From NCBI GenBank assembly GCA_963854815.1, contig CAWLAN010000003.1:1-38957 (forward strand): DNA of 38,957 bases, given 5' to 3'. The translations under genes were made by a program, and so were the position numbers. Positions 13,907-35,751 of this stretch are shown one piece after another. The notes under the pieces are model-generated. The model was not told where the DNA came from and searched no databases. It was given only the letters and a program-made list of their open reading frames with translations. Source of the DNA: Planctomycetes bacterium UBA1146. GTDB lineage: Bacteria; Planctomycetota; UBA8108; UBA1146. Position 1 is the stretch's first letter. Every line of letters starts with the position of its first letter.

Positions 13907-16900
13907 ATGTTCTCTCGACCCGTTTCCACGTTGTCGTTTGTACTTTCCATCTGTCTTCTCTTCATCTGTGTGCCAGCAGCTGCTGACATCTCCCTGAAGG
14001 AAGTCCCTGTCATCCAACTGCCAGGTCTCGATATCGAGATGCTGGCTCTCGAAGACGAAGAGCGAGACAGTCTCGGACTCGCACCACGCTATGCGGTGCC
14101 CAATCCGGTCACCATCACTCCTCAAACTCATGGACGCTGGACCAAACTCGACAACACAACCGCTGTCTGGCGTCTGCGCTTCTCCTGCAAGAATGCCATC
14201 AGCATGAACTTTGGATTCAGTCGATGGCTGGTTCCCATCGATGGTGAGATGCGCATCTATAATCTCGATCGCACCCATCGAATCCGTCCCTTCGATGTCA
14301 ATGACATCCAGGACTCGGGTGAACTGTGGACACCTCCGGTGGCCGGAGGTGACGTGATCATCGAGATCCTCTGCCCTCTCGAGGCACGCTGGCTCGTCGA
14401 ACAGGAAGTGGAACTCAGCAGTGTCAATCCGGGTTACCGGGGATTCTACGAGAACTTCGGTCAGACCCCATCAAGCAGCAGCGCGCCCGCCTTCTCGGGG
14501 TCCTGCAATGTCGATGTGGCATGCCCGCAATCGGCAGGGTGGGAGAACGAGATCGACTGCGTCGGTGTGATCTCCACCGGTGGCTTCCTCTTCTGCACCG
14601 GATTCATGGTCAACAACACCGCCCAGGACGGCACTCCCTTCTTCATGACTGCCGATCACTGTCAAGTCACACCCGGAAATGCCGGATCCCTGGTGGTTTT
14701 CTGGAACTTCGAGAATTCCTTCTGTCGCACGCCTGGCACCGCCGGAGCCGGTGGTCCCGGCGACGGCCAACTGAACCAGTTCAGCTCCGGATCCATCTAC
14801 CGTGCCGGCTCTTCGACATCGGATTTCACCCTGGTCGAACTGACCAGCCCACCGAACCCTGCTTTCGGGGTCTCTTTCTGCGGCTGGAATGCTACCACCT
14901 CCCAGCCCAGCAGTGCCGTCGGCATCCATCACCCCGATGTCGAGGAGAAAAGAATCTCCTTCGAGAACCAGCCCCCCAGCCTCTCGACCAACTTCGTGAC
15001 GGTCAATGATTGGGACCTGGGAACCACCGAGCCGGGATCGTCTGGATCTCCGCTGTTCGATCAGAACCACCGCGTCATCGGTCAACTCTGCTGTGGTTCC
15101 GCCGCCTGTGGTAACAACTTCTCCGATGACTACGGTCGCTTTTCTGCCTCCTGGAACCTCGGTCTTGGTTTCTGGCTAGATGCCGCGAACACCGGCCAAC
15201 TGTTCATCGACACCCTCCCCTCCGGAGGTGGCGGACCGGGTACGGAGAACTGCTCCAACGGTACCGATGATGACGGTGACGGACTCATCGACTGCGCCGA
15301 CCCCGATTGCGCCAGCAGCCCGGCTTGCTTGCCGCCTTCTGCTGGTGACGAGTGCGGTGACCCGATCGTCGTCATCGATGGTGCCAATGCTATCGATAAC
15401 ACCGGGATGACCACCGGAACCGATCCCATCTCCGACGCTCAATGCCCCGGCACCTTCCTGGGAGAGTTCGTCAATGACGGCTGGTACAGCTACACGGCCA
15501 CTTCCACCGGTGCGATGGATGTGAGCACCTGTAACAGCATCAGTTTCGATTCCGATGTTGCCATCTACACTGGCACCTGTGGTGCTCTCACCCAGATCGC
15601 CTGCAACGGCGACGGCACCGGCTGCGCCGGGTTCTCTTCCCTCGTCACCGGCGTTGCCGTGACTGCGGGAACCGAATACCTGATTCGCGTCGGTGGCTGG
15701 GATGCGGGCACCGGAGTTGGAAGCGGCACCATGACCATCACCGTTGGTGGTGGCGGACCTGCCACCGAGAACTGCACCAATGGAACCGACGATGACGGTG
15801 ACGGACTCATCGACTGCGCTGACCCTGATTGCGCCAACGACCCCGCCTGTGGTGGCGGCGGTGGAAACGGAGACGAGTGCATCGATGCAATCCTCGTCAC
15901 CGAGGGTGCCAACGCCTTTGATACAACCGGAATGACTGACAGTCCTGAGCCTGATCCGACCGGCTGCCCCAACGCCTATGGCGAGAACGCCAGCGATGGG
16001 TGGTTCTTGTACATTGCCAACTCCTCCGGCGACGTGACCGTCGAGACCTGCGACATAAATAGTTTTGATACCGACCTCGCCGCATACTCAGGCGGTTGCG
16101 GAAACCTGAACCTTCTCGCCTGTGACGGCGATGGTGGTGCTCCCGGCTGTCAGGCCTTTTCTTCCATGATCACCATTCCAGGAGTCCAGGCGGGGGATAG
16201 CATCATCCTTCGCGTTGGCGGCTGGAGTGCAATTGATCAAGGTCCAGGCACCCTCACCATCACCGTAGGAGGTGGCGGACCCGGCGGTGGCACTGGCGAC
16301 GAGTGCAACGACGCGGTCACCGCCAACGATGGAGCCAACCCCTTCAACACCACCGCCATGACCGACAGCCCCGAAGCTTCTGACGACACCCAGTGCCCAG
16401 GCACCTTCCTGGGAGATTTCGTCCAGGACATGTGGTTCACCTACACCCCGGCAGCCAGTGGCAGCATCGATGTCTCCCTCTGTGGTAGCAGTTACGATAC
16501 CGATCTCGCCGTCTACAGTGGTGCCTGTGGTGGTCTGGTTCAGATCGCCTGCAGCGGCGACAACTGCGGTCTCCAGTCGGAGATTCTCGCCGTTCCGGTC
16601 ACTGCCGGTGTCCCCGTGTTGATCCGGGTAGGTGGTTGGGCACCCGGTAGCGCCGGAGCCGGCACCCTCGTCATCACAGGCGGTGGCCCTGGCGTTGAAA
16701 ATTGCACCAACGGTACCGACGATGACGGTGACGGACTCATCGACTGCGCCGACCCCGATTGCGCCAACGACCCCGCCTGTGGCGGTGGTGGCGGAAACGG
16801 TGACGAGTGCAACGATCCACTCATCGCGGTGGTCGGTTCCAATCCGGTCGATACCACCACCATGACCGATAGTGCTGACCCCTACGATGATTTCACCTGC

Positions 16901-18190
16901 CCGGCCACCGCCCTCGGAGTGATGACTGCCGATGCCTGGTACCAGTTCAGCGCGCCGGTGAGCGGTACCGCAACCTTCTCCACCTGCGACCTCATCTCCT
17001 TCGACAGTGATCTCGTCGCTTACACGGGTGCCTGTGGCGCTCTGACACAGGTCGCTTGTAATGGTGACGGTGCCGGTTGTGGTGGATTCACCTCGTTGAT
17101 GGAAATGAGTGTTACTGCTGGCACCAACTACCTGATTCGCATCGGCGGTTGGTCTCTTGGGGAACAGGGAACAGGAACCCTCGAGATCACTCTCGCGGGT
17201 GCTCCGAACCCTGAGGACTGCACCAACGGCACTGACGATGATGGCGATGGGGATATCGACTGCGAGGATACGGACTGTGATCAAGATCCCGCCTGCACCA
17301 CTCCACCGGAGAACTGCAGCAACGGTGTCGATGACGACGGCGATGGACTCATCGACTGCAATGACCCCGATTGCGCTGCCGATCCGAACTGCCAGGCGCC
17401 TCCCAGTGGCTTCAGTTTCATCGCCTCGGATGAGACCGCCGATTACTCCGTTGATACCGGAGTCGGTAGTTTCAGTGCCACCCTCAGCGTCAGCGAGGAT
17501 TCGGGTGCCTCTGGATATCCCAACGATACCCAGGGCTTCTCCTTCGGTCTGTCTCACGATTCGAGCCTGCTGGCGGTGATCACTTTCACCGCGGGATCTG
17601 TTCTCACCGAACTCAACACGAACAATGGTCCCGATTTCATCGACATCAATAACTTTGTAGATGGCATCACGGTCGGCTGTGTCTACAACTTCTCCAATTC
17701 CGCCTTCATCACGTTCGTGACCCCAACCGCGATTGGATCGGTTTCTTACGACACCGTTCCTGGCGGACTCATCGGTAACAACACCGGCACCACCACCGGA
17801 CTCAACTGGAGCGATGCTCTCGGCACACCTCCTGTGGTGAATATCCTGGTCGTCAACGGCCAGGCCCAACCAGCCGCCTTCGATAACGGAACCGTCACCC
17901 TGGAACCGGCCATCGGTGGTTTCGTGCGCGGCGACTTCAACTCGGATGGCTCCATCAACATCGCCGACTGCGTGTCGATGCTGGCGGGGCTCTTCACCGG
18001 TGGTCTCATCCTTTGTTTCGATGCTGGCGACGCCAACGATGACGGTTCATTCAACGTCGCGGACGCGGTATACGAACTGACATGGTTGTTCTCCGGTGGT
18101 GCTCCGGTGCCACCGCCGGTCGGTCCCAACTGTGGCTCCGACCCGACTTCCGACAGTCTCGACTGTGCGTCCTACGACGCCTGTCCGTGA
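13907..18190 (+). CDS. Secreted lysyl-endopeptidase-like (S1) serine protease with Cys/Asp-rich repeats, four beta-sandwich repeats, a cohesin-like domain and a dockerin-like domain
   Basis: Signal peptide and propeptide; SGSCNVDVAC; triad motifs TADHC, SDFTLVEL and TEPGSSGSPLF; C-terminal RGDFNSDGSINIAD...DANDDGSFNVAD double EF-loop. Confidence 0.88.
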   Translation: MFSRPVSTLSFVLSICLLFICVPAAADISLKEVPVIQLPGLDIEMLALEDEERDSLGLAPRYAVPNPVTITPQTHGRWTKLDNTTAVWRLRFSCKNAISMNFGFSRWLVPIDGEMRIYNLDRTHRIRPFDVNDIQDSGELWTPPVAGGDVIIEILCPLEARWLVEQEVELSSVNPGYRGFYENFGQTPSSSSAPAFSGSCNVDVACPQSAGWENEIDCVGVISTGGFLFCTGFMVNNTAQDGTPFFMTADHCQVTPGNAGSLVVFWNFENSFCRTPGTAGAGGPGDGQLNQFSSGSIYRAGSSTSDFTLVELTSPPNPAFGVSFCGWNATTSQPSSAVGIHHPDVEEKRISFENQPPSLSTNFVTVNDWDLGTTEPGSSGSPLFDQNHRVIGQLCCGSAACGNNFSDDYGRFSASWNLGLGFWLDAANTGQLFIDTLPSGGGGPGTENCSNGTDDDGDGLIDCADPDCASSPACLPPSAGDECGDPIVVIDGANAIDNTGMTTGTDPISDAQCPGTFLGEFVNDGWYSYTATSTGAMDVSTCNSISFDSDVAIYTGTCGALTQIACNGDGTGCAGFSSLVTGVAVTAGTEYLIRVGGWDAGTGVGSGTMTITVGGGGPATENCTNGTDDDGDGLIDCADPDCANDPACGGGGGNGDECIDAILVTEGANAFDTTGMTDSPEPDPTGCPNAYGENASDGWFLYIANSSGDVTVETCDINSFDTDLAAYSGGCGNLNLLACDGDGGAPGCQAFSSMITIPGVQAGDSIILRVGGWSAIDQGPGTLTITVGGGGPGGGTGDECNDAVTANDGANPFNTTAMTDSPEASDDTQCPGTFLGDFVQDMWFTYTPAASGSIDVSLCGSSYDTDLAVYSGACGGLVQIACSGDNCGLQSEILAVPVTAGVPVLIRVGGWAPGSAGAGTLVITGGGPGVENCTNGTDDDGDGLIDCADPDCANDPACGGGGGNGDECNDPLIAVVGSNPVDTTTMTDSADPYDDFTCPATALGVMTADAWYQFSAPVSGTATFSTCDLISFDSDLVAYTGACGALTQVACNGDGAGCGGFTSLMEMSVTAGTNYLIRIGGWSLGEQGTGTLEITLAGAPNPEDCTNGTDDDGDGDIDCEDTDCDQDPACTTPPENCSNGVDDDGDGLIDCNDPDCAADPNCQAPPSGFSFIASDETADYSVDTGVGSFSATLSVSEDSGASGYPNDTQGFSFGLSHDSSLLAVITFTAGSVLTELNTNNGPDFIDINNFVDGITVGCVYNFSNSAFITFVTPTAIGSVSYDTVPGGLIGNNTGTTTGLNWSDALGTPPVVNILVVNGQAQPAAFDNGTVTLEPAIGGFVRGDFNSDGSINIADCVSMLAGLFTGGLILCFDAGDANDDGSFNVADAVYELTWLFSGGAPVPPPVGPNCGSDPTSDSLDCASYDACP
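15245..17392 (+). repeat. Five intragenic 84-bp repeats encoding E-[ND]-C-x-N-G-x-DDDGDG-x-IDC-x-D-x-DC-x4/5-C modules
   Basis: Copies start at 15245, 15767, 16697, 17213 and 17309. Copies 2 and 3 are near-identical over about 115 nt, including the GGGGGNGDEC linker. Confidence 0.9.
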
Positions 18191-18341: not shown

Positions 18342-21300
18342 ATGCCCACTTCCATGCCGTCCACCTTGCTGTCTCTACGTTCCTGGGGTTCGCTCCTGCG
18401 CGGTCTGGAATCGATATCTGCACTGATCGAAACGGCAGCCAAACAGGGCTGGCACTGTGTTGCGGTGGCGGAGTACGCCGACCTGGGCACCATCGTCGAA
18501 GCGGCGAACGCCGGAACACGAACCCGGATGAAGGTCATCGGCGCCGCCGAGATCGATGACGGTCGTGGAAGTTCCATCGTCGCCATCGCTCGCGACAACG
18601 CAGGTCTCGAGCAGTTACATCAACTGGTGAGTCTACGTCGACTCGCAGGCACTGAAGAAAGTGCCGCCAGCCGGTCCGACAGCCTGAACGATTTCGATCT
18701 GATCGAGGCACTCAGCAGCGGATACCGGTCGCTGTGGATCCTGGTCCGATCTCCCCGACTGGCACGGGAACTGCTCGATCGTCTCGATCCCGGTGCCCGT
18801 CATCGAATCTTCATCGAAATCGATCGCCTTCGAGACTCCATCGCACGAGAGCGTCGTGGCCGCGAGGCCGCTGACCAGCTCGGACTCGAAATCGTTGCAT
18901 CGACCCGGGTCGGTATGCTGCAACCGACCCTCGATCGTCACCTGAATCTTCTCGAATCCGTGCGTTGCGTCTCGACCATCGAACGCATCGCCCGTGACCG
19001 CCACGACAACACCGACCCCGACATCTCTCCGATTCTCACTCCCGTCCCATCACCGGGTCGCTGGCGCCAACTGTACCGCGACCTGCCGGATGCGCTGGGA
19101 AACGCCGCACGGATCGGCAAGGATGCGATAAGAATCGACTTCACCGACAAACCCACCATCTTCCCGCCCTTTCCGGTGCCCGCGGGCCAGACTCCTTTCG
19201 GACTGCTGTACGAACAGTGCCATCGCGGATTGCTGCGTCGCTACGGCAGTATTACTCGGGCCGCGGTGGAGCGACTCACCCGCGAATTGCATGTCATCGA
19301 CACGATGGGGTTCGTCCCCTACTTCCTGGTGGTCGCAGACATCGTCGCCGAGGCCTACCGCCTCGGCATCGAATGTGCCGGACGCGGATCAGGAGCCGCC
19401 TCCATCGTCTCCTATGCCCTCGGAATCACCCAGGTCGACCCGCTCGCACACCGTCTGCGCTTCGAACGATTCCTGCACCCACAACGAAAAGATCTCCCCG
19501 ATATCGACATCGATCTGTGCTGGCAGGGGCGTGACGCTGTCATCGATCACGTTTATCGTCGCTACGGAACCGACCGGACCGCGATGATCTGCACCCGAAC
19601 CTCGCTCCAGGTGCGCTCGGCTCTTCGGGAAGCCGCCCGTGCTCACGGTCTGGCTCCCATCGATGTCGACCGGATCTCCCGTCGCCTACCCCATCGATCG
19701 GAACAAACGATTCCCCGGTTACTGGCAGAAGATTCTGCCCTCGCCTCCGTCAGTCTCCCGGCCACCGCTCGACAGCAGTTGCTCGAAGATGCCGAATGGC
19801 TCCGAGGCCATCCGCACCATCGCTCGATTCACCCGGGTGGCATCTGCATCTGCGACCGTCCCATCCAGCGCATCGCCTCTCTCGAACGAACCACCAAGGG
19901 TATCGTCGTCACTCAACTCGACATGTATTCCATCGAACAGACAGGACTCATCAAGATCGACCTGCTCGGCAACCGCTGCGTCTCGGAGATCGGCACGGTG
20001 CGCGATCTGGTCGAGCAAAGAAGCGGCAAGCGGCCGCAGATCGAGGCCATTCCCGAGCAGTGCGAGAAGACCGCCAAACTACTGTGCCGGGGAGAGACCC
20101 TCGGCTGTTTCCAGCTGGAAAGTCCCGCGATGCGATCGCTGTTGGTGCAGATGCAGGCTCGAACTGCCCGGGACACCATCCAGGCGATCGCGCTGATTCG
20201 ACCGGGACCCGCCTCCGGAGGTCTGAAGGAATCCTTCTGTCGCCGCATCCGGGGTCAGGAACACCCCACCCCCCCTCATCCTTGCCTTGCCGAACTACTG
20301 GGCGACCAGCAGGGACTGCTTCTCTACGAGGAGAACGTGATGGAGACGATCGCCCTCGTCACCGGCAGCAGTCTCGCCGAGGGAGATCTGGTGCGACGCG
20401 CTCTCTTGCAAGCCATCGGTTCCAACGACCAGGAAAAACTGAAAAGACTCGGCGATGAATTCATCGCAGCTGGTATCGGCAACAATTTCGGAGCCACCGA
20501 TGCCCGCCAGTTGTGGCAATACCTGCAACGCTTCGGTCGCTACTGCTTCAACAAGTCTCACTCTGCCTCTTACGGTCTTCTCGCCTGGCGTAGCGCGTGG
20601 CTCAAAGCTCACTACCCGGCCGAGTTCTTCTGTGCGTTGTTTCGTCATCACGCCGGCATGTATCCCTTCTCTGCTCTCGTCGCCGAGGCGAGGAGAGCTG
20701 GCATATCTCTGCGACCTCCTTGTATCCAGCGATCTGCCTCGACCTTCATCCTGGAAAGAGACGGATCGATCCGGATGCCGCTGGCGATGATCCGTGGATC
20801 GCGCCAGGCGAGCATCGATTCCGTGTTCGCCATGCGCCCCTTCGATTCTCCGGAGGACCTGATGCGACGTGCCAGGATTTCTCGCTCGGAACTCGAGGAG
20901 TGGATCCTCGCCGGTGCCCTCGACCAGTTCTCGATACCACGACCCCGGCTGCTGTGGCGCGTACGCACACGTCATCGACAGGAAGCCGCAACGACCCGTA
21001 CCACCGAAAACAGCGCCCCCGATCTGGCTGGAGTCGTCGACGAGGGGCCCCACCTCGACCAGTTTTCGCGCCGAAAGATCATCGAACAAGAAATCCGGCT
21101 GCTCGGAGCCGGTATCAGCGGCCACCCGATGAGTTTTCATCAAGATCTGCGGCGCCGACTCGGTTGCTTACCACTGGCAGAGATACCGCATCACGGTGCT
21201 TGCACGGTGCGAATCGCCGGCCTGCGGATCGCCTCACGTCATCACCGCACCGATCGGGGTCCGATGGGTTTCATCACCCTGGAGGACGAACAGGGAATCT

Positions 21301-22975: not shown

Positions 22976-24154
22976 TCAGCTTCCTTTCGGGCGGGTGAAT
23001 CTGTCTCGAACCAGTTCCAGGATGGAAACTGTCGCCTCCTCGACCCCCTTCTCATCGGCAAGCAATGCGCCGCCGATCAGCAGCATCGTATCGGACCCGA
23101 AGTCCTCGATCATCTCGGGGATCCTGTCGAGGCTCATGCCTCCGGCAGGAATCGCCCAACCCGGGGCGATGTGCCCCAGCGGTGCTCGCAGTTGCTCGGC
23201 GATCTGTCTTCCTTGCTCGCGGGTGGTAGAGAAGCGGCCTCCGGCGTTGACGAACACCGAGCCATCGAGCCCTGCCAATCGGGCCAGCGTACCATGCACG
23301 ATCGGCAGCGAGATGCCCCCGTCACGGTGAGCCGTCAGGACGCCGCTCATCGAGGGGTGCCCGATATGGACTCCTGGCCAGCGGGAAGTCAGCTCCCGAA
23401 CGCGGTCGAGACCGATGACCCAGGGTGCCATCAGAGCTCCATCGGCACCGGCTTCCAGTGCCACCTCCAGCCGCGCATCGAGTTCTTCGGCGGGAGCCAT
23501 CAGGTTGACCAGGTACAATACATGCCGATCTCCCTCGGTCTCTCTCACCGCCGCCGTGCAACGTTCGATTCGATCGCGAAAAGAAGCGAGGTCATCATCG
23601 AGCAGGTTGTGGTCGTCCTTGATCAGATCTCCGCCACCGGCAATGAAATCTCGACACACCTTGACCAGATCGGCCAGCGGAGCTCCCCTCGGCTTGAGGG
23701 CGGTCGCGACCAGCGGACGATCGTGAACTCCGGTGAGTTCTCTCACTCCGGAGATGCCGTGATTCGGTCCCGGGAAACCTCGCAGAACATCATCCGGGAG
23801 CCGCAGGCCGATGAGACGTACCCCCGGCATCATCGAACAGTTCCCCAGCAACAGATTGAGCCAGCGGGTCAGATCGGAGCCGGCCAGTTCCCCGGCGAAG
23901 GAGAGGGTCAACTGCTGGAGTCCAGGGGAGATCTCGTGCAGATCCTCGACCTTGGCGACGATCTCGCTCTCGATCCCCGGGTGGCGAGAGATGAGGGATT
24001 CCGGAACTTCTACCGTCAATTCGACGGCGATGGATCGTGCCATTGCAACAGAGCCATCTGTTGCAGACAGCACCCGATAGGTCGCTTCGATCCGTTCCAA
24101 GGTCACCTCTTCGAACCCGAATTTTCGTGAAGATCCCGGATCTCTCGCCCTCAT
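22976..24154 (-). CDS. RuBisCO-like protein (form IV), resembling the DeepYkr-type methylthioribulose-1-phosphate isomerase
   Basis: ALKPRG, GGDLIKDDH, HPSMSG, NAGGRF, PAGGM and LLIGGALL motifs; KDDH replaces the KDDE of true RuBisCO. Start may be GTG 24106 or TTG 24100. Confidence 0.88.
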   Translation of the reverse strand: MRARDPGSSRKFGFEEVTLERIEATYRVLSATDGSVAMARSIAVELTVEVPESLISRHPGIESEIVAKVEDLHEISPGLQQLTLSFAGELAGSDLTRWLNLLLGNCSMMPGVRLIGLRLPDDVLRGFPGPNHGISGVRELTGVHDRPLVATALKPRGAPLADLVKVCRDFIAGGGDLIKDDHNLLDDDLASFRDRIERCTAAVRETEGDRHVLYLVNLMAPAEELDARLEVALEAGADGALMAPWVIGLDRVRELTSRWPGVHIGHPSMSGVLTAHRDGGISLPIVHGTLARLAGLDGSVFVNAGGRFSTTREQGRQIAEQLRAPLGHIAPGWAIPAGGMSLDRIPEMIEDFGSDTMLLIGGALLADEKGVEEATVSILELVRDRFTRPKGS

Positions 24155-24275: not shown

Positions 24276-25310
24276 ATGAGCATTCGCGTAGGATTGATGG
24301 GCTTCGGTCGCATCGGTCGCAACGTATTTCGTGCCATCTACGGGCGAGATGATATCGAAATCGTGGCCATCAATGAACTGGCCGATATCGAGTCGATGGT
24401 TTACCTGCTGCGATTCGATTCGCTGCGGGGCCCCTTCGAGGAACCGATCCGCATCCTCGATGACGCCATCTACGCCAAGGGACGTCAGATACCCGTCATG
24501 CACCACCGCGAACCGGGGCAGATTCCCTGGTACGAGTATGGCGTCGACGTGGTCGTGGAAGCGACCGGAAAGTATCGCGCTCGTAACGACCTCGAAAAGC
24601 ACCTCGAACAGGGTGCCAACCGGGTCATCCTCACCACACCCCCCACCGACGATGTTGACCACCTGCATATCCGAGGAGTCACTCCCGACGAGGTGGACCG
24701 ATCGAACCGGATCATTTCGTGCGGATCGTCGACGGCGAATGCCACCGCACTGCTGGTCAAGGTGATCGATGACACCTTCGGAGTGGAGGAGGGCTCCTTC
24801 ACCTCGGTACACGCCTACACCGCCGACCAGAGTCTGACCGATGTTCCCACTTCGGGGGACCTGCGTAGATCCCGAGCCGCGATGCAGAACATCGTTCCCC
24901 AGACCACCTGGACCGATGAAGCCATCGAGGAACTGTTCCCGCACCTACGCGGTCGATTCAAGGGATTGAAACTGAACGTTCCCGTACCCGGTGTCTCCTG
25001 CAGTGACCTCACGGTTCAGACCAAAAGAACGGTCACCGCTGGCGAGGTGAATGAGGTGTTCCGCAGTGCTGCCGACAGCATCCACGATGGAATCCTCTCC
25101 TTCACCGATCAGCCCATCGTCTCCAGCGACATCGCAGGCAGCTCCGCATCGTGTGTTTTCGACAGTCTCGCCACCCTGGTCACCGACGACATCCTGCTGA
25201 AGGTGATCGGCTGGTACGAACAGGGAGGAGGGATCTCTCACCGGATCGTCGAACTGGCCACCCGGTTGGGACCGAAAGCCTCTAGCGGTGGGGAGAGGAA
25301 AAACCGATGA
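24276..25310 (+). CDS. GAPDH-family paralogue lacking the catalytic cysteine
   Basis: GFGRIGR, EATG, VHAYTADQ and DLRRSRAA are present, but the active site reads SCGSSTANA instead of SNASCTTNC, and WYEQG replaces WYDNE. Confidence 0.88.
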   Translation: MSIRVGLMGFGRIGRNVFRAIYGRDDIEIVAINELADIESMVYLLRFDSLRGPFEEPIRILDDAIYAKGRQIPVMHHREPGQIPWYEYGVDVVVEATGKYRARNDLEKHLEQGANRVILTTPPTDDVDHLHIRGVTPDEVDRSNRIISCGSSTANATALLVKVIDDTFGVEEGSFTSVHAYTADQSLTDVPTSGDLRRSRAAMQNIVPQTTWTDEAIEELFPHLRGRFKGLKLNVPVPGVSCSDLTVQTKRTVTAGEVNEVFRSAADSIHDGILSFTDQPIVSSDIAGSSASCVFDSLATLVTDDILLKVIGWYEQGGGISHRIVELATRLGPKASSGGERKNR

Positions 25311-26299
25311 AAGTTGCCATTAACGGTTTCGGACGCATCGGCCGCAGCGTGTTCCGGATCCTGACGGGACGCGATGACATCAATGTCGTCGCCATCAATG
25401 ACATCTCCGATCCTCACTCGCTGGCCTACTTACTGCGTTACGACTCCGTGATGGGGCCGTTCCCCGAACCGGTAACCCTTGACTCACTTACTCTCAGTGC
25501 AGGACGACAAAGTTGCCAGATGCTGGCCGAGAAGGATCCACAACAACTACCCTGGGAAGAACTGTCAGTTGATGTCGTCATCGAATCGACCGGCAGATTC
25601 CGAACTCGCGCTGAACTCGACATGCACCTCCAGGCCGGAGCGGGGAAAGTCATCCTTACGGTACCACCCAAAGATTCCGTCGACGCCCTGGTGGTGCTCG
25701 GTGTCAATGATGAGATCCTGGAGCCGAGCCATCGGATCATCTCAAATGCCTCCTGCACGACCAACTGTCTGGCTCCGCTGGTCAAGGTACTCGACGATTC
25801 TTTCGGACTGGTGCGTGGAGTGATGACCACGGTACACGCCTACACCAACGACCAGAGCCTGGCGGACTGGTATCACCAGGATCTGCGCCGATCTCGTGCA
25901 GCCGGGGAAAACACCATTCCCACCACGACCGGTGCCGCCCGCGCCGTCGGCGAGGTACTCCCTCAACTGGCCGGAAAACTGGACGGGATGGCGATGCGGG
26001 TTCCCGTCATCGACGGATCCGTGGTCGATCTGGTCGCCACCCTCGAGAAACCGGTCACCGTCGAGGACATCAACTCGGTGATGAAGGATAGTGCCGAGGG
26101 CCCGATGAAGGGAATCCTCGAGTATTGCACCGACCCGGTCGTCTCCTCCGATATCATCGGCAATCCCCATTCATCGATCTTCGACTCCCTGTTGACGATG
26201 ACGATCGGCACTCACGGTGCCAAGGTGCTGTCCTGGTACGACAACGAATGGGGATACTCGAGCCGGGTGGTGGATCTGATCGACCGGCTGCGGGACTGA
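25307..26299 (+). CDS. gap: Type I glyceraldehyde-3-phosphate dehydrogenase
   Basis: INGFGRIGR, SNASCTTNCLAP, TTTGAA and WYDNEWGYS motifs are all intact. Confidence 0.96.
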   Translation: MKVAINGFGRIGRSVFRILTGRDDINVVAINDISDPHSLAYLLRYDSVMGPFPEPVTLDSLTLSAGRQSCQMLAEKDPQQLPWEELSVDVVIESTGRFRTRAELDMHLQAGAGKVILTVPPKDSVDALVVLGVNDEILEPSHRIISNASCTTNCLAPLVKVLDDSFGLVRGVMTTVHAYTNDQSLADWYHQDLRRSRAAGENTIPTTTGAARAVGEVLPQLAGKLDGMAMRVPVIDGSVVDLVATLEKPVTVEDINSVMKDSAEGPMKGILEYCTDPVVSSDIIGNPHSSIFDSLLTMTIGTHGAKVLSWYDNEWGYSSRVVDLIDRLRD

Positions 26300-26318: not shown

Positions 26319-26357
26319 AGAAGGGGCCCGGCGGGTGTTACCCGCCGGACCCCTTCT
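26319..26357. terminator. Probable bidirectional terminator hairpin between convergent genes
   Basis: AGAAGGGGCCCGGCGGGT-gtt-ACCCGCCGGACCCCTTCT; 17 of 18 positions pair. Confidence 0.7.
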
Positions 26358-26382: not shown

Positions 26383-27378
26383 CTACAGGTACTTCTGAAT
26401 CTCTCCGAGGCGGATCTCTGCTTCACGCGCGGCTTCGGTACCGGAGTACCTCTTGGCCCTGGCAACGACGGCGTAGATCTTCGCCGCCTCCTCGTACTTG
26501 CCACGCTTTACCAGATCATGAGCCTCAGCCAGCATCTGTCCACCGGACATCTCGGCCTGAATCTTCTTGTCGCGCTTCCAGACCTTGAACTCCTTGTCGA
26601 ACTTCTTGGAGATGTCCATCCCCTTGAAGTCACGAATCCCTCGCTGAAGAGCTAACAGTCCCGTCTCGTACTGGCGCTTCTCCTTGAAGGTAGCGATGGC
26701 CGCGAACCGATCCTCGGAGAACTTGGTGATCTGTTCCATCGCTTCTCTGGCGGCATCCGCCACCGAAGCATCCTTGGCACGCTTGGCCTGCTTCTTCAGT
26801 TCACTGAAGGCCTTGCCGAACTGGCTCGCCTTGATGTACCTGGAGGCCTTGGACAGTTCCGACGGCAGGGAGATCTTCGGACCGACCCGCGCTCCGGCGA
26901 TGTGCTTCTCGATGATGGAGTTGTTCAGCCCTGCCGGGTGACCCTTCCAGACGATCTTCCCATTCGGTCCGACGAGCCAGGAATGCGGAATCCCGCGGGT
27001 CTTGTATTCGTTCGCACCGCCACCGTAGGCGATGGGGTACTTCATCTTGTTACGCTCGACGTAAGGCTTTGTCTTGGTTTCCGGTTCATCGGTGACCCCG
27101 ATGACGACCAGACCGCGCTCCCCGAACTCCTTATGAAGTTTGTTCAGGTGCGGGATCTGCCCTTTGCAAGGTCCTCACCATGTGGCCCATTTTTCGATCA
27201 GAATCAATTTTCCAGCGAGGGATTCCCAGGTCGTCGTTCCCTCGATGTTGATCCAGCCACCAGGCTTCATGGTAGGGGCAACATCCCCCACGGCAGAGCC
27301 TGCCAGGACCGGAAAACTCGCAAGCAAGCAGATGGCAACAATTGCCAGCCAACTGCGAGTTCGAACCTTGGTCAGCAT
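26383..27378 (-). CDS. Exported TlpA/ResA-like thiol-disulfide oxidoreductase, predicted selenoprotein (U68, UGPC motif), with a C-terminal helical/TPR-like domain
   Basis: ATG 27378 after GAAGGGAG; signal peptide; GKLILIEKWATW-TGA(27177-27175)-GPCKGQIPHLNKLHKEFGERGLVVIGV continues in frame into ORF 26383..27045 (GIPHSWLVGPNGKIVW). 331 aa when read through. Confidence 0.87.
27146..27174 (-). promoter_or_regulatory. Candidate bacterial SECIS hairpin of the TlpA-like gene
   Basis: mRNA after UGA reads GGACCU-UGC-aaa-GGG-[CAGAU]-CCC-GCA-CCU; the apical loop starts 16 nt after UGA. Weak, bulged stem, folded by eye. Confidence 0.45.
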
Positions 27379-27580
27379 TAGATTCTCCCTTCGAAACCGC
27401 CCCGGGCGGCTCCCGACATCCGTTGTCCTATTCTGATCTCGATCAGTACACAACGGAACGCCTCTTGGGGGTCCTTGCCCCTGTCGTGCCAAGTTATCGC
27501 GAACCGACCCGATCCGCAATATCATGGAAACGGTCCGGAAGGTGCCCCGGTTCCTTCAAAACCCCTGAACTCGCCGGGGG

Positions 27581-27609
27581 TTGCGGTTGAACGAGGAGGC
27601 TTCTAGCAT
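27581..27609 (+). promoter_or_regulatory. Putative sigma70 promoter for the first DUF1573-type gene
   Basis: TTGCGG-N17-TAGCAT. Confidence 0.4.
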
Positions 27610-27654
27610 CGATTTGTGATGTCGACCCGCCGATCAACAGGAATTGCCGCAACA

Positions 27655-28755
27655 ATGTCTCGATCCAGGTCCCTTTCGCTGCAGAACCGGCCATTGGCGT
27701 GGGTTCTGGCCATTTTCTTGGCTCAACTGTCAGTCGATGTGCCGCTATGTGGGCAAATCGATGACCCCCCGCTTCCGCTCTTGCCCGTTCCTGTCATCCA
27801 CATCGAGGAGATGGAACACGACTGGGGAAAAGTGCTCCAGGGAACCCGGGTGAAGCATATCTTTACCGTCGAGAACCGAGGCAAGGCGCCACTCAAGATT
27901 CTCAAGGTGTCATCCACCTGCGGTTGCACTTCGACTCGCTTCGACGAAGTGATCGAGCCAGGAGCCAGCGGAATCATCGAACTGCAGGTCGACACCACCG
28001 AATTCTCCGGAGGCAGACCGCGCAAGAATGCTGTCGTGAAAACCAACGATCCGGAACTCTCCGAGGTTCATCTGTGGATGGTTGGCCTGGTCGATCCACT
28101 CCTCCAGTTCGAGAGTTCGGTGTTCAAGCTGTCGGGTCTGGCGATGGAGAAGAAACAACTGAAAACCATCATCGTGCCAGCCGTGGAACTTCCCATCTCG
28201 CTGGTGCAAGCAAAATCGAAGAACGGATCATTTCTGGTCGCTGCTATCGAGTCTCTCGATAAGGGCTGGAAGTTGACTCTCACTGCGGATGTTTCCGAAC
28301 AGGTCAAGAGTCTCCGCGATGACCTGGAGCTGGTGGTTTCGATCGCTGATGGAAAACCCTTCACCATCCCGGTGCCGGTCGTGGTGGAACACAAGGACCG
28401 TATTCTCATGGTTCCGGCCGGGAATTTGATCTTCTACCGCCGTCATACCGCACCTCTCGATGGTCCGGTTCGTCGCGAAGTGGTGAAGGAAGTTCAGGTG
28501 CGCTCGGTGCGCGAGGACCTTCCCATTCTCGACTTCTCGGCAGAAATCATCGAAGCACCCGAGGGCCTGTTCGGCCTCAGGGTCATCGAAGTGATTCCAG
28601 GGCATCACTACAGGGTGCGCATCCAGGTGCTGCGAACCCTCCCCACTGCGCAGGGACGAGGGATCCTCCGGATGCGGCTCGGGCAAGGAAAAGACCAGGT
28701 GAGGGACAAGGGAGTCATCGCACAATTTCGGCTCAAACCGACCGATTCGCCCTAG
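27655..28755 (+). CDS. Exported DUF1573-type Ig-like domain protein (CGC motif), Cys paralogue
   Basis: HDWGKVLQG..HIFTVENRGKAPLKILKVSSTCGCT...IEPGASGII..K..VKTNDP pattern, followed by further beta-rich domains. Start may be 27616 or 27619. Confidence 0.82.
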   Translation: MSRSRSLSLQNRPLAWVLAIFLAQLSVDVPLCGQIDDPPLPLLPVPVIHIEEMEHDWGKVLQGTRVKHIFTVENRGKAPLKILKVSSTCGCTSTRFDEVIEPGASGIIELQVDTTEFSGGRPRKNAVVKTNDPELSEVHLWMVGLVDPLLQFESSVFKLSGLAMEKKQLKTIIVPAVELPISLVQAKSKNGSFLVAAIESLDKGWKLTLTADVSEQVKSLRDDLELVVSIADGKPFTIPVPVVVEHKDRILMVPAGNLIFYRRHTAPLDGPVRREVVKEVQVRSVREDLPILDFSAEIIEAPEGLFGLRVIEVIPGHHYRVRIQVLRTLPTAQGRGILRMRLGQGKDQVRDKGVIAQFRLKPTDSP

Positions 28756-28773
28756 TACGGTCCCTTTGTGGAC

Positions 28774-28801
28774 TTGACCTCATCGACGAATTCGATATCT
28801 T
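28774..28801 (+). promoter_or_regulatory. Putative sigma70 promoter for the second DUF1573-type gene
   Basis: TTGACC-N16-TATCTT; the spacer contains the dyad ATCGA-cgaat-TCGAT. Confidence 0.5.
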
Positions 28802-28859
28802 GGAAAATAGGCTCAAGTGGCCGCATCGCCTTGCCCCGATGAGAATCCCGATTCGGCCG

Positions 28860-28913
28860 GAACGGTCGATCCGAACGGTCGACTAGAACCGTAGACCCGT
28901 GCGAGAGGTAGAC
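28860..28913 (+). repeat. Short direct repeats with a 13-bp period in the leader of the UGA-containing DUF1573 gene
   Basis: GAACGGTCGAT (28860), GAACGGTCGAC (28873), GAACCGTAGAC (28886), plus a degenerate GAGAGGTAGAC (28903) overlapping the SD. Confidence 0.65.
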
Positions 28914-28918
28914 TCTCT

Positions 28919-30223
28919 GTGAAATACCGAAACATCCAGTTGCCGTTCGCCATGCTGGTACTACTGGTGCTTGCCGTTGCGCTACTACCGTTGTCCGGCT
29001 CGTTGAGTTTCGCCGCAGATGACGATCTCGGACCTCCACCGCCTCCCGCCCAGGAGGGACCTCGTATTCGTTTCGATAGCACCAGTTTCGACTGGGGTGA
29101 GGTGCTCCAGGGAGACAAGGTGGAACACACCTATCGATTCCACAACGTTGGAACTGGCATCCTTCGGATCACCCAGGTCAAGCCTGGCTGAGGTTGCGCT
29201 CGCGGGGCTTTTACCCGCGAGGTTCTCCCCGGAGGGGAGGGCGAAGTGACCCTCGTCGTCGACACCTCGAAACTGCGCACCGAAGCGGTGCGGAAGTACG
29301 CCACCGTCAGTTGCAACGACCCCCGACAGCCACAGATTCGCCTCACCGTCGGCGGAAAATTGCGCCATGTCGTCAAGGTGGAACCCGCCAGCCTCATCCT
29401 CAGAGGAGCCACCGGAGCTGATCTGGTCGGAAAATTGACCTTTTCGAAGGGGACAGATCTCGATATCACCGTCACAGGCGGTACAGCGGCGAAGAATCTG
29501 ATCTACGTCGGTGACATCGTGGAGATCTCTGCTGGTGAGAAGTACGAGATTCAGGTCGAAGCACCCAAGGCACTGGTTCCCGGGATGTTGCGTGACATTC
29601 TCAACGTGGAGATCGTCTGTAGTGACGGTGTGATTCGGACCACTTCGATTCCAGTGACCGTCGATCATCAGGCTCCGATCAGCGTCATTCCGCGCGGGAA
29701 TATCGTGTTCCAGCGCAAGGACACCGATCGCCTCAAGGTCGCGGGATCGGCGCCGGTGAAACGAGACCTGCAAATTTACTCCACCGCCCCGGGAACCCGG
29801 TTCAACATCACATCGATGACGATGGAAGGAACCCCCGAGAATCTATTTCGCCTCTCCCAGAGAGAGATTCGTTCAGGAGAACGCTATCTGGTGACGGTCG
29901 AGGTCACTGAACCACGTCCCGAGCGTTCGATCCGTGGAACCCTACGGATCCTCACCGATCACCCGGATATGCCGGAGGTCACCGCTCGAGTCTATGCTCA
30001 GTTCGGTGTTCCGACGCCGATTCGCCGGCCCGTAACGGTACCCGGCAAGAAGCCAGTTCCATCGCTCAAGGTGCCTGGCAAGAAGGCAACGGCTATCCCC
30101 GGAGTTCCCGGTATCCGGTTATCACCGACCGTGGACATCCCCTTCAAGCCGACTCCAAAACCGAAACCGAAACCGAAACCGGTCATACCCGACAAGCTGA
30201 ACTCCGGTCAGAAACCCGGGTAA
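28919..30223 (+). CDS. Exported DUF1573-type Ig-like domain protein, predicted selenoprotein (U91, UGC motif), with a Pro/Lys-rich tail
   Basis: ORFs 28919..29191 and 29246..30223 share a frame and are joined by one TGA (29189-29191): ITQVKPG-U-GCARGAFTREVLPGGEGEVTLVVDT. This aligns gap-free with ILKVSST-C-GCTSTRFDEVIEPGASGIIELQVDT of the upstream paralogue. 434 aa when read through. Confidence 0.85.
29199..29239 (+). promoter_or_regulatory. Candidate bacterial SECIS hairpin(s)
   Basis: Perfect 8-bp stem CUCGCGGG-[GCUUUUA]-CCCGCGAG (29199-29221), with the loop starting with G at +16 from UGA. A second hairpin CUCCCC-[GGA]-GGGGAG lies at 29225-29239. Confidence 0.65.
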
Positions 30224-30343: not shown

Positions 30344-30564
30344 CGTAACATATTATAATAAAATGACTTACGATAGTTTCTGCGGTTCCTGAGCCAGCCC
30401 TGGTCCGCTCCCCCAAAAAAAACATGGAAATTTCTGCTGTGAAAACCTTGTTTGTAGGGCAGTCGATGTACGGCATCGCTTCAGGGCGTTGCCTTTTTTT
30501 GTGCCCGAATCCCCTTTTCGGCTCGGCTCATCACCCGTAACATCTTTATAAATAATAACTTATG
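30344..30564. repeat. Two 29-bp AT-rich imperfect dyad elements
   Basis: CGTAACATATTATAATAAAATGACTTACG (30344-30372) and CGTAACATCTTTATAAATAATAACTTATG (30536-30564); 21 of 29 positions identical. Confidence 0.7.
30472..30500 (+). terminator. Intrinsic terminator
   Basis: GGCATCGC-ttcagg-GCGTTGCC (one mismatch) followed by T7. Confidence 0.65.
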
Positions 30565-32594: not shown

Positions 32595-33578
32595 CTAACT
32601 TCTCAGCAACCGCTCAAGTCGCTCATCGGAAACGTTGCCGCCGCTGATCACCGCCACATGAGTGCCCCCTGGCAGTGCCTCTCCTGTAGTCGGCACCAGC
32701 AGAGGCGCGACGGAGCAGGCCCCGCTCGGTTCTGCCTCGATCTGGCAATCGCAGCGGAGGATCCTGAGACTCTCGAGCAACTGATCCTCATCGATCACCT
32801 CGGCGACCACCCCGACCGAACTCAGCACTTCCCAGTTCCGTTGCCCGATCGTCAGCGGTAACAAACCATCGGCCTCGGATGTGCTGCTTTCGAGACGAAG
32901 CCGTCGCCCCTGGGCGATGGAGCGCGCCAGCGCCGCGGATCCTTCCGGTTCGACGGTATGAACCTGGCAGCCGGGAATCTGCGCCGCAGCGACCGCGGCA
33001 CAACCAGCGGAGAGCCCTCCCCCTCCGACTGGAACCCACAGGTGGTCGACCGTGCCGATCTCATCGATGATCTCGAGCATCAACGTTCCCTGGCCCGCCA
33101 TGATCCAGTCGTGATCGAAGGGAGGAATGATCGTCCAACCCCTGTCGGCGGCGATCTGCTCGGCGCGCTGTTTCCTCTCATCGGAGGTCGGTCCGACCCG
33201 GACCAGTTCCGCACCGGCATCGATCACCGCCTGAGCCTTGAGGGGATCGATGCTCCCGGGTGCCACCACCAGGGCCGGGATCCCCAGCACTTCTGCAGCC
33301 TCCGCCACCGCCCGGCCATGATTGCCGCTGGAGTAGGTCAACACCCCCGCCGGAACTCCCTCTTGCAACAGTCGCTCGAGGAAATGGGTCGCCCCCCTCG
33401 CCTTGAAGGATCCGGAACGCTGGCAGCACTCCAGTTTGACAAGCAGCCGGTCAGGACCAGCCACGACCAGATGGGAGGGAATCTGCACGAGAGGAGTCCG
33501 TATCAGCTTTTCTCGCAGCATCCGTGCCGCTTCGCACGCCAGGGTTGCGATCCGCTCGTGGCGAGAATCTCCGATCAA
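32595..33578 (-). CDS. PLP-dependent serine/threonine dehydratase or serine racemase family enzyme
   Basis: KLECCQRSGSFKARGA, SSGNHG, GQGT, VGGGGL, EPSGA and SGGN motifs; no ACT domain. TTG 33578 follows GAGGGAG; alternative start at 33662. Confidence 0.9.
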   Translation of the reverse strand: MIGDSRHERIATLACEAARMLREKLIRTPLVQIPSHLVVAGPDRLLVKLECCQRSGSFKARGATHFLERLLQEGVPAGVLTYSSGNHGRAVAEAAEVLGIPALVVAPGSIDPLKAQAVIDAGAELVRVGPTSDERKQRAEQIAADRGWTIIPPFDHDWIMAGQGTLMLEIIDEIGTVDHLWVPVGGGGLSAGCAAVAAAQIPGCQVHTVEPEGSAALARSIAQGRRLRLESSTSEADGLLPLTIGQRNWEVLSSVGVVAEVIDEDQLLESLRILRCDCQIEAEPSGACSVAPLLVPTTGEALPGGTHVAVISGGNVSDERLERLLRS

Positions 33579-33813
33579 GCCTGCTCCCTCTCCCAGACGA
33601 TATCCATCCCGTTCGGTCGGGGATCCTTGATGGGTTCCTCTGGCCTGCATATCGTACGCCACGTGACGGAGGGGGAGCAGCGAAACCCGGACTTCCGCCG
33701 GCAGACCTGGCCCGGCGAAGTCTGGTCCGGATCGAAATACCTCACCCCGCTCGTCTTTGCAGGCTCAGTGATCATCGTACAACCGGAATCCAAACCTCGC
33801 GGAAGGAACCGTC

Positions 33814-35751
33814 ATGGTCCGCAGTTCTTTCGATGCTCCCGCTCTCAGTGAAGAACACATCCGCTGGCATCAGGAAGCCGTGATTCGTTGCCGTCGTGCG
33901 ATCATCCAGATGACGAGTCTGGCGGCCTCGGGACACCCCGGAGGATCGTTGTCGTCCCTCGATCTCTATCTGGTGCTGTGGTCGTGCGCCCGCGTCGAGG
34001 CGGACAACCCCTGGATGACGGGGCGGGATCGCATCGTTGTCAGTCACGGTCACACCTCGCCAGGTGTCTATTCGGTGCTTGCCGAGCTCGGCTTTGTCGA
34101 TAGGGAAGAGGTGATCGCATCCTTTCGCAGCACACAGAATCTTTTCGAGGGACACATCGAACGAGAAGTGCCGGGTGTCGAATGGACCACCGGCAATCTC
34201 GGCCAGGGGTTGTCGGCAGCCTGCGGCATGACCCTGGGAGAGAGGATCCACGGTCGCCGTGCGCGGATTTTCGTTCCGATGGGAGATGGGGAACAACAGA
34301 AGGGTCAGATCAGTGAAGCGCGCCGCTTCGCCGTCAAGTTTGGCCTCAACGAGATCACCGCCATCGTCGACCGCAATCAGCAGCAGATCAGCGGAGGCAC
34401 GCAACAGATCATGCCCCAGCGCATCGTCGAGAACTGGGAGTCCGATGGCTGGCACGTGGTGGAGATCGATGGCCACGATCCACAACAGATCTTCTCCACA
34501 TTGCAGCAGGCAGGCCGCGACGAGCAGCGACCCTGGTGCATCGTAGCGAACACGGTGATGGGCAAGGGAATCTCCTTCATGGAGAATCTATGCGACTTCC
34601 ATGGCCGCGGTCTGAAACCGGAAGAGTTTGCCGCTGCAATCGAGGAACTGGGCGAAGATCCGGCGCTGTGGGATCTGGGTCCCTTCGAGCAACGCCGCAA
34701 CCGGCGCCCGGCCAGCACCATCCCCTCTCTGCCGCATCAGTTCCCGAAACTGAATCCGGGAGAGCCGGTCACCTACGGAGTCGATGAACGGACCGATTGC
34801 CGCAGTGCCTTCGGCAAGGCGATTCACGATGTCGCCCTCGCGACCGACAGCAAGTCTCCTCCGATCGCTGCCTTCGACTGTGACCTGGAGGGATCTGTCA
34901 AACTGGGTGCCTTCCACGAGTCCTTCCCCGATCGTTTCTTTCAGTCCGGGGTCCAGGAACATCACACGGCCACCTGCGCGGGAGCCCTTTCCACCTGCGG
35001 AGTCACTACCGTGTTCGCTGATTTCGGGGTCTTCGGAGTGTGCGAGACCTACAACCAGCATCGACTCAGCGATATCAATCACGCCCAGTTGAAGATCGCA
35101 TGCACCCATCTGGGTCTCGATGTCGGTGAAGATGGTAAGACCCATCAATGCATCGATTATGTCGGCTTGCTGCGAAACATCTTCGGCATGAGCATCTTTG
35201 TGCCGGCAGATCCGAACCAGACCGATCGCATCGTGCGTCATGCCCTGACGACACCGGGAATGGCATTCATCGGCATGGGACGTTCGAAACTGTCCACCAT
35301 CACCGATGAAAATGGTGCGCCTTTCTTCGCTGGCGACTACCAGTTCGAACCGGGAAGGATCGACTTCATCCGCACGGGAACCGCCGGCATGGTGATCTCG
35401 ATGGGTACGCCGACCGGACGCGCACTGGAAGCCGTCGATGCTCTTCGCGCTGAGGGACTCGATATCAGTCTCGCCCACGTCGCAACTCCGGCCGAATTGG
35501 ATCGATCCTCTGTCCAGGAAATCGTCGGGCAACCCTTCATCGTGACTGTCGAGGATCATTCGGTCAGGACCGGACTGGGCAACTGCATCGCCGAGGCACT
35601 GTTCGACATCGGGACGACCATCCCGCATCTGCGTCTGGGCGTCGAGAAATACGCACCGAGCGGACCTGCCGTCGAGGTCTATCGTCATTGCGGTCTCGAT
35701 ACCGACTCCATCAAGGAACGGGTCCAGGCCTTTGCTCTCGAGCGGCAGTAG
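33814..35751 (+). CDS. tkt: Transketolase
   Basis: SGHPGGSLS, DRIVVSHGH, GNLGQGLS, TPP motif GDGEQQKG..N, GVQEH, GEDGKTHQ and VEDH. Confidence 0.93.
   Translation: MVRSSFDAPALSEEHIRWHQEAVIRCRRAIIQMTSLAASGHPGGSLSSLDLYLVLWSCARVEADNPWMTGRDRIVVSHGHTSPGVYSVLAELGFVDREEVIASFRSTQNLFEGHIEREVPGVEWTTGNLGQGLSAACGMTLGERIHGRRARIFVPMGDGEQQKGQISEARRFAVKFGLNEITAIVDRNQQQISGGTQQIMPQRIVENWESDGWHVVEIDGHDPQQIFSTLQQAGRDEQRPWCIVANTVMGKGISFMENLCDFHGRGLKPEEFAAAIEELGEDPALWDLGPFEQRRNRRPASTIPSLPHQFPKLNPGEPVTYGVDERTDCRSAFGKAIHDVALATDSKSPPIAAFDCDLEGSVKLGAFHESFPDRFFQSGVQEHHTATCAGALSTCGVTTVFADFGVFGVCETYNQHRLSDINHAQLKIACTHLGLDVGEDGKTHQCIDYVGLLRNIFGMSIFVPADPNQTDRIVRHALTTPGMAFIGMGRSKLSTITDENGAPFFAGDYQFEPGRIDFIRTGTAGMVISMGTPTGRALEAVDALRAEGLDISLAHVATPAELDRSSVQEIVGQPFIVTVEDHSVRTGLGNCIAEALFDIGTTIPHLRLGVEKYAPSGPAVEVYRHCGLDTDSIKERVQAFALERQ

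Follow-up and report, generated by a model that had tools for sequence, protein, structure and literature searches.

Two selenoprotein genes and a cysteine paralogue, all of known families, in a divergent locus of a planctomycete genome

We analyzed contig CAWLAN010000003.1 of the assembly GCA_963854815.1 (Planctomycetes bacterium UBA1146), a stretch of 38,957 nt that is referred to below as the window. The locus of interest encodes a thioredoxin-fold protein and, divergently from it, two DUF1573 proteins, termed A and B; the thioredoxin-fold gene and B each contain an in-frame TGA codon at a motif cysteine. Our overall interpretation, to which we assign a probability of about 0.8, is that the locus holds two authentic selenoprotein genes and a cysteine (Cys) paralogue of known families, and that their adjacency reflects an inherited local gene order. 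An initial annotation of this DNA had proposed a candidate new system. This proposal is for the most part not supported, as both selenoproteins belong to families already described (OS_HP2/NF041425 for B and UxxC TlpA/Prx-like proteins for the thioredoxin-fold protein).

Selenocysteine codons in the thioredoxin-fold gene and B

Under genetic code table 11 the region contains three open reading frames (ORFs), one of 220 aa on the minus strand (26383-27045) and two on the plus strand, of 379 aa (27616-28755) and 325 aa (29246-30223). Read-through of a TGA fuses the 220-aa ORF with an upstream piece into the thioredoxin-fold gene (26383-27378, minus strand, 331 aa), and likewise extends the 325-aa ORF to gene B (28919-30223, plus strand, 434 aa). 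Gene A (27616-28755, plus strand) has 379 aa when counted from GTG 27616. The TGA of the thioredoxin-fold gene (27177-27175, minus strand) would specify selenocysteine (Sec) U68, the first residue of a UxxC motif (WATW-U68-GPC), and that of B (29189-29191, plus strand) Sec U91, the first residue of a UxC motif (KPG-U91-G-C93). The motif of A is SST-C102-G-C104-T, with its codons at 27919-27927. Judged by eye, the N-termini of the three proteins have a basic and then a hydrophobic stretch in the manner of a signal peptide, and all three proteins appear to be exported. The initial annotation had described three ORFs with signal peptides, two of them with UGA at a motif cysteine, and the divergence of the thioredoxin gene and the DUF1573 pair from one intergenic region; all of these features were found where it had placed them.

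The codons were compared across 60 related genomes, 27 of which belong to the taxonomic family of the host, termed f1. In the closest relatives, which are metagenome-assembled genomes of Planctomycetota, both TGAs occupy the same codons, with 70-86% protein identity on either side. By hand count, the 60 genomes contain 55 two-domain matches (thioredoxin matches that extend into the C-terminal domain), of which 52 have the TGA, exactly one each, at identities from 93% down to about 24%. The three matches that have no TGA show CNPC, CPPC and a degenerate WNWLC, that is, Cys at the site in two cases and Asn in one. UGC was present in all B orthologues read, covering every f1 locus read and two outgroups, and the B-like genes of three other outgroup genomes have CGC; A has CGC throughout the 11 f1 loci read. 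Cys forms of the Sec column therefore exist for both genes. Two such TGAs had been considered unlikely to arise by chance, a judgment with which the retention of the same codons agrees.

The host genome (2.7 Mb, 88% complete, with the window as contig C3) encodes selB (378 bits, cut-off 242), selA (511 bits), selD (340 bits) and a tRNA-Sec with anticodon TCA that directly adjoins selD and selA. The claim of selenium dependence had hinged on the presence of sel genes, and selA, selB, selD and tRNA-Sec were all detected. Three of these, selA, selD and tRNA-Sec, are clustered on the minus strand of contig C13 (6004-8659), beyond the window; selD has one in-frame TGA of its own and probably encodes a selenoprotein form of SelD.

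Because the TGAs are conserved, have Cys homologues, occur together with sel genes and tRNA-Sec and, in B, precede a SECIS-like hairpin (see below), we read them as selenocysteine codons. On this comparative evidence both TGAs encode selenocysteine and both genes are genuine selenoprotein genes. Were the TGAs real stops, the genes would be pseudogenes, split genes or assembly errors, and each TGA gene does split into two ORFs under table 11. The probability of this is negligible, given that the same TGA codon recurs in dozens of independently assembled genomes with the protein conserved on both sides, that Cys stands at the homologous column in relatives, and that the sel machinery is complete. 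The comparative data led us to reject the TGAs as pseudogene marks.

SECIS-like hairpins

The bacterial selenocysteine insertion sequence (SECIS) is, by consensus, a hairpin shortly downstream of the UGA with a G in its apical loop. In B, a hairpin at 29199-29221 (plus strand) has an 8-bp stem 10 nt past the TGA and a 7-nt loop, GCUUUUA, that starts 16 nt past the TGA; it fits the bacterial SECIS rule. The 71-nt segment after the TGA folds with -38.5 kcal/mol (z -2.25), and 5 of 200 shuffles were as stable. A second hairpin of B (29222-29242, plus strand) overlaps a conserved stretch coding for PGGEG, and 3 of its 8 predicted pairs show two-sided changes. Folding of 15 Sec-type DUF1573 genes gave a hairpin starting 10-16 nt past the TGA in 14, with sequences that differ between lineages. 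The hairpin is more stable in Sec than in Cys forms: the mean minimum free energy of the segment from +9 to +42 is -11.8 kcal/mol in 15 Sec genes and -6.4 kcal/mol in 28 Cys genes (Mann-Whitney p = 6e-5, uncorrected for relatedness). When 14 Sec-type DUF1573 genes were submitted to RNAalifold, only the second hairpin was recovered; inspection of the individual folds indicates that the register of the first hairpin differs by lineage.

A candidate SECIS hairpin of the thioredoxin-fold gene lies at 27116-27152 (minus strand), 26-62 nt past the first base of the TGA, with moderate support. Across 19 orthologues, 75.8% of the cells in this candidate helix are paired and 4 pairs show two-sided changes. 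The initial annotation had stated that both TGAs are followed by hairpins. For B this statement was confirmed, in that the hairpin is SECIS-like; the thioredoxin hairpin is not clearly defined.

A hairpin at the SECIS position was also seen in A (27928-27960) and in A orthologues of genera g1 and g5, with energies of -11.5 to -14.7 kcal/mol; the A genes folded from other f1 genera gave -4.3 to -8.7 kcal/mol at this position. The hairpin in A may have persisted from an earlier Sec state, or it may be due to chance.

The thioredoxin-fold protein

Pfam assigns residues 31-146 of the thioredoxin-fold protein to AhpC-TSA/Redoxin/Thioredoxin, and the scores for PF00578 (55.9 bits, cut-off 26) and PF08534 (41.2 bits, cut-off 26.6) place a thioredoxin-fold domain there. 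The best solved relatives over residues 30-160 are a redoxin domain protein (E = 4e-17) and ResA (E = 7e-14), and DsbE-like proteins and TlpA were also among them. The protein consists of a putative signal peptide, a redoxin domain of approximately residues 30-160, and a helical C-terminal domain of approximately residues 165-331. The C-terminal domain, which is conserved and comprises about 170 residues, had no Pfam match. C71 and P131 are invariant in 31 orthologues, in keeping with a U/C-x-x-C active site, and P131 is the likely cis-Pro. In one orthologue (L037; G039:C4:3936322-3937197) Asn replaces the Sec/Cys residue (TWNWLC), with the second Cys and the C-terminal domain retained; from its sequence this protein looks like a redox-inactive or monothiol derivative.

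The selenoproteins in published tables include Prx-like thiol:disulfide oxidoreductases with a UxxC motif, thiol:disulfide interchange proteins and a TlpA family with UGC (PMC2398784, PMC9312934, PMC13188914). None of the terms sought occurs in the main text of the BSepDB paper (PMC13326102). Like the UxxC TlpA/Prx-like selenoproteins, the present protein has an exported redoxin domain whose active-site motif begins with Sec. It differs from the UGC-type TlpA selenoproteins in that its motif is U-G-P-C, which is classic thioredoxin-like, and not UGC, and from known TlpA-like selenoproteins in the helical domain of about 170 residues that follows the redoxin domain.

The DUF1573 proteins A and B

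Both A (63.0 bits) and B (61.2 bits) score well above the gathering threshold of PF07610 (DUF1573; 26.1 bits), in a region that overlaps a HYDIN/VesB/CFA65-like immunoglobulin (Ig)-like domain. In an alignment of 47 members of the DUF1573 family, the motif positions U/C91 and C93 are the sole invariant columns. OS_HP2 was named in Table 2 of a study of Olavius symbionts and has been in print since 2007 (PMC1976440), and the GOS study has an entry "OS_HP2, pfam07610, UxC" with 2 Sec and 354 Cys sequences (PMC2398784). Review tables also contain a DUF1573 selenoprotein family with a UxC/UGC motif (PMC9312934, PMC13188914). By its sequence, B is a member of this OS_HP2 / DUF1573 UGC selenoprotein family and A is a Cys paralogue: B shares with OS_HP2/PF07610/NF041425 the DUF1573 domain, UGC at the CxC position of the family, Cys homologues, and the SECIS-like hairpin. 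Two features of the proteins described here are absent from the passages on OS_HP2 in these papers, namely that the DUF1573 domain heads a three-Ig-domain protein of 380-430 aa, and that the genes form conserved tandem Sec/Cys pairs, mostly with four paralogues per f1 genome. The literature passages on DUF1573 give no function for the U/C-x-C motif and no link to a TlpA-like protein.

The AlphaFold model of B has a mean pLDDT (predicted local confidence) of 85.2, with most blocks within residues 50-360 above 93. It predicts three Ig-like beta-sandwich domains (residues 50-150, 152-251 and 254-361), then a disordered Pro/Lys-rich tail, and places U91-G-C93 in the turn that joins strands 82-89 and 94-98. 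A Foldseek search with this model returned only generic Ig/ASH/cadherin-like arrays and no functional lead, and a phmmer search of PDB sequences with B yielded no meaningful match. The only solved relative by sequence profile, PDB entry 2qsv, an uncharacterized protein of Porphyromonas gingivalis, has a related Ig-like domain (profile E = 2e-6, Foldseek rank 33) but no CxC at the aligned position, so that no solved structure found shows the reactive turn. The tail of B (30030-30223 of the window) is of low complexity, with PKPKPKPKP here and repeated PVPQK in genus g5; its length and sequence vary among close relatives, and in G002, the closest of them, the match is broken by a TAG.

Most f1 genomes contain four full-length DUF1573 paralogues (E <= 1e-25). 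In the genomes whose loci were read, two of the four have Sec (B and a C21 type) and two have Cys (A and a C119 type). The host genome has further copies on contigs C21 (Sec, NGT-U-GC), C119 and C39 (both Cys). The C21 copy (approximately 18882-19922; L014:5616-6944), with the motif NGT-U-GC-TV, has its own hairpin after the TGA and, by ORF inspection, lies amid giant secreted repeat proteins and a response regulator. Sec occupies the motif position in all five related loci read (L014, L067, L068, L070 and L071).

Conservation of the gene neighborhood

To assess the neighborhood, 40 thioredoxin matches were chosen from 150 listed, mostly the best per genome, and about 7 kb on either side was searched by tblastn and with a DUF1573 hidden Markov model built from the five copies of the host genome; 11 of the 27 f1 genomes were covered. 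The divergent thioredoxin / A / B order was found in 11 of 11 f1 loci, in two of which the contig ends after A. In these loci, every motif that the search located has Sec in the thioredoxin and B, and Cys in A. Match coordinates place an A- or B-type gene less than 3 kb from the thioredoxin in each of the 23 f1 genomes with a thioredoxin orthologue. The flanks are similarly stable: two tandem GAPDH genes lie upstream in 11 of 11 loci, and a sodium:alanine symporter gene downstream in 9 of 11, followed by the next gene in 7 of 11. The order of the GAPDH pair beside the thioredoxin gene is also kept in one sister-family genome.

Outside f1, a DUF1573 gene adjacent to the thioredoxin orthologue was found in 0 of 29 loci. 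Several of these loci are short or stop close to the match, so that some of the negatives carry less weight. In one of the 29 loci, from a sister-family genome (G030), a B-type UGC gene lies 5.8 kb from the thioredoxin, with a cytidylyltransferase gene between the thioredoxin and the DUF1573 pair. Genome G045, which consists of a single contig, has 1.2 Mb between its thioredoxin orthologue and its DUF1573 pair. Among 18 DUF1573 loci away from the trio, the outgroup tandem pairs included, a TlpA-like gene within 7 kb was clear in one (G030) and suggested by a 16.8-bit match in another, and the C21, C119 and C39 loci of the host genome have no TlpA-like neighbor. The unannotated ORFs that flank the thioredoxin orthologue in five distant loci appear to differ from one locus to the next, and no conserved partner was seen there.

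Several outgroup genomes have two or three DUF1573 paralogues in tandem. The conserved neighbors of these outgroup pairs are a divergently oriented cytidylyltransferase gene and genes for a transketolase, a pyridoxal phosphate (PLP)-dependent enzyme, TruD and a tetratricopeptide repeat (TPR)-aspartyl protease; a redox partner was sought beside the pairs and none is conserved, the neighbors being housekeeping genes. Of these neighbors, the PLP-dependent enzyme and the transketolase are also encoded in the window, downstream of B. The distribution across genomes indicates that the tandem DUF1573 pair is the more anciently conserved unit. We infer that the pair and its housekeeping flanks are ancestral, and that a loss or rearrangement in the f1 ancestor would have brought the GAPDH-GAPDH-thioredoxin block alongside, to be inherited since. 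The conserved three-gene neighborhood of the initial annotation largely fell away under this comparison, since it is confined to f1, where the flanking genes show the same degree of synteny, and no linkage between the genes is kept elsewhere.

The intergenic region common to the thioredoxin-fold gene and A spans 237 bp (27379-27615). For A, a conserved promoter-like pair on the plus strand, recognized at the level of pattern only, consists of TTGCGG (27581-27586) and TAGCAT (27604-27609) with a 17-nt spacer. In an alignment of 10 intergenic regions from f1 the block GATGCTAG is nearly invariant, and the region shows two separate sigma-70-like promoter patterns. A shared palindromic operator was sought in the f1 alignment and by reading the sequence, and none was seen. 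A sigma-54-like reading of TTGGCAC was dropped because it is inconsistent across genomes. Since the -10-like block of A lies just 7 nt ahead of GTG 27616, translation of A may in fact begin at ATG 27619, in a leaderless-like arrangement, or at ATG 27655.

These data bear on the proposal of a relay, in which the Sec-TlpA-like protein would specifically reduce or oxidize the CxC/UxC of the neighboring DUF1573 proteins and the three would constitute one selenium-dependent extracytoplasmic module, at least in f1. The genes diverge from a common 237-bp region in an arrangement kept in every f1 genome where it is readable, they lie 5.8 kb apart in the sister-family genome, all three proteins are apparently exported as judged by eye, and both partners have Sec/Cys motifs that would be reactive. 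A precedent exists in TlpA-type reductases, which serve cysteine pairs in beta-sandwich proteins, as TlpA does with ScoI and CoxB. However, the housekeeping flanks in f1 are equally conserved in order, so that conservation of the trio is uninformative, and 28 of the 29 non-f1 thioredoxin loci lack a DUF1573 gene within about 7 kb. In addition, two genomes, G042 (96% complete) and G047 (89%), combine a Sec thioredoxin orthologue with the absence of any P0002-like protein at E <= 1e-25, the third Sec copy of DUF1573 (C21) and the Cys copies (C119 and C39) lack a TlpA-like neighbor, and the intergenic region shows two separate promoter-like patterns and no shared operator. Because the thioredoxin stands beside the pair in one family only, by inherited gene order, adjacency alone is not specific evidence that it serves the DUF1573 motif. 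A thiol/selenol relay is possible, and we consider a specific one of this kind improbable.

Bounds and genomic setting of the locus

Genes of carbon metabolism surround the locus. On the side of the thioredoxin-fold gene are a gene for a RuBisCO-large-chain-like protein (22976-24154, minus strand) and the tandem GAPDH paralogues (24276-25310 and 25307-26299), whose ends overlap by 4 nt. Downstream of B are genes for a PLP-dependent enzyme (32595-33662) and a transketolase (33814-35751). Between the convergent GAPDH gene, which ends at 26299, and the thioredoxin-fold gene, which ends at 26383, a hairpin at 26319-26357 (18 pairs, 13 of them G-C, with a loop of 3) is probably a two-way terminator. 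A weak terminator-like site (30483-30495, plus strand), with a 5-pair stem and a T run, lies 260 nt past the stop codon of B. The region has 5 terminator-like sites, compared with 4.6 expected from shuffles, and the hairpin at 26319-26357 alone stands out. Of the terminator hairpins that had been proposed to bound the locus, the one on the side of the thioredoxin-fold gene is convincing, and the one on the side of B is weak and no better than shuffles.

Rfam at the gathering threshold and ARAGORN found nothing in the window, and no cytochrome-maturation or cox genes are located within it. Two very large, secreted-looking ORFs of 1196 and 1427 aa occupy 10162-18190 and have one recognizable Pfam domain each, a 3-keto-disaccharide hydrolase domain and a galactose-binding-like domain associated with the type IX secretion system (T9SS).

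Discussion

The thioredoxin-fold protein is most likely, by analogy with TlpA, ResA and CcmG, an extracytoplasmic thiol:disulfide reductase. The selenolate of U68 would attack client disulfides and C71 would resolve the mixed bond, and the protein would be re-reduced through a membrane protein of the CcdA/DsbD type. In the cell envelope, reductive pathways run from CcdA/DsbD to TlpA, ResA or CcmG, and include the action of TlpA on ScoI and CoxB. The present case would resemble these pathways in combining an exported thioredoxin-fold protein with a DsbD_TM/CcdA gene elsewhere in the host genome (91.9 bits), and differs from them in that the nucleophile would be Sec and not Cys.

A and B would be exported Ig-domain proteins with a reactive U/C-x-C turn that serves in redox chemistry or metal handling. 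Because Sec and Cys interchange at the first position, we take the DUF1573 motif to be reactive, in redox/catalysis or with a metal, rather than structural. A metal site, in which the C/U-x-C turn would bind a soft metal such as Cu(I) or Hg(II) and A and B would be metal-handling or adhesin-like proteins of the periplasm or surface, is unlikely but deserves consideration. It would suit the model, which puts the CxC on an exposed turn of an Ig-like domain rather than within a thioredoxin fold, and the lack of a conserved redox partner beside the DUF1573 pair. On the other hand, no metal-transport or resistance genes are conserved nearby, the invariant ligands number only two, and most Sec residues sit in redox-active sites. 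A further scenario, which appears improbable, is that the Sec-TlpA-like protein of f1 is the dedicated redox partner of the tandem pair, and that the pair is an Ig-fold redox module in which Sec-containing B and Cys-containing A cooperate, for example through an inter-subunit selenylsulfide.

Several observations weigh against our interpretation of two selenoproteins of known families joined by inherited gene order. The fold after the thioredoxin TGA is the weaker of the two (z -1.53, with 17 of 200 shuffles as stable), a three-helix structure derived from the fold of the window itself has a moderate covariation score that 6 of 500 shuffles reach, and RNAalifold found no consensus pairs in 19 thioredoxin orthologues. 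For DUF1573, the comparison of hairpin stability between Sec and Cys genes is confounded, its p value being inflated by relatedness and by a difference in G+C (0.66 vs 0.59). With regard to family membership, B (94.9 bits) and A (92.7 bits) fall just below the cut-off of 100 of NF041425 ("OS_HP2 family (seleno)protein"), and are by sequence a somewhat divergent branch of that family. The thioredoxin-fold protein scores 60 against a cut-off of 170 for ResA, 41 against 230 for TlpA and 37 against 300 for WAxxUGC_long, and an equivalog-level match to ResA, TlpA, DsbE or WAxxUGC_long was not obtained, all scores being far below the cut-offs. Because the scores for NF041425, ResA, TlpA and WAxxUGC are under their cut-offs, neither the thioredoxin-fold protein nor the DUF1573 proteins are equivalogs of a named NCBIfam family. 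The proposals for a reductase role, for the source of its electrons and for a reactive CxC/UxC are made by analogy. In the many fragmented outgroup genomes, a location on different contigs is weaker evidence than a measured distance. Finally, the divergent order is stable across f1 down to a thioredoxin identity of 37-38%, which is compatible with a lineage-specific functional link; the background synteny makes the f1 arrangement uninformative and does not refute such a link.

As it stands, the finding is mainly a matter of annotation. A standard gene caller would split or truncate the thioredoxin-fold gene, B, the C21 copy of DUF1573 and selD, all of which should instead be read through as selenoproteins. 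The Sec-TlpA-like protein, with its helical C-terminal domain, is conserved across the 60 genomes, most of which belong to one Planctomycetota class; it almost always contains Sec, and no NCBIfam equivalog covers it. In the DUF1573 pairs of f1, each copy read keeps a fixed state, one paralogue with Sec and the other with Cys, and the reactive U/C-x-C would lie in a turn of a fold, the Ig-like domain, that is seldom linked to thiol redox chemistry. If the thioredoxin were the partner of the pair, which the genomic evidence does not favor over inherited gene order, it would offer a handle on the function of the DUF1573 family. A dedicated partnership, if true, would provide the first function for a predicted selenoprotein family for which the review tables give a domain name only.

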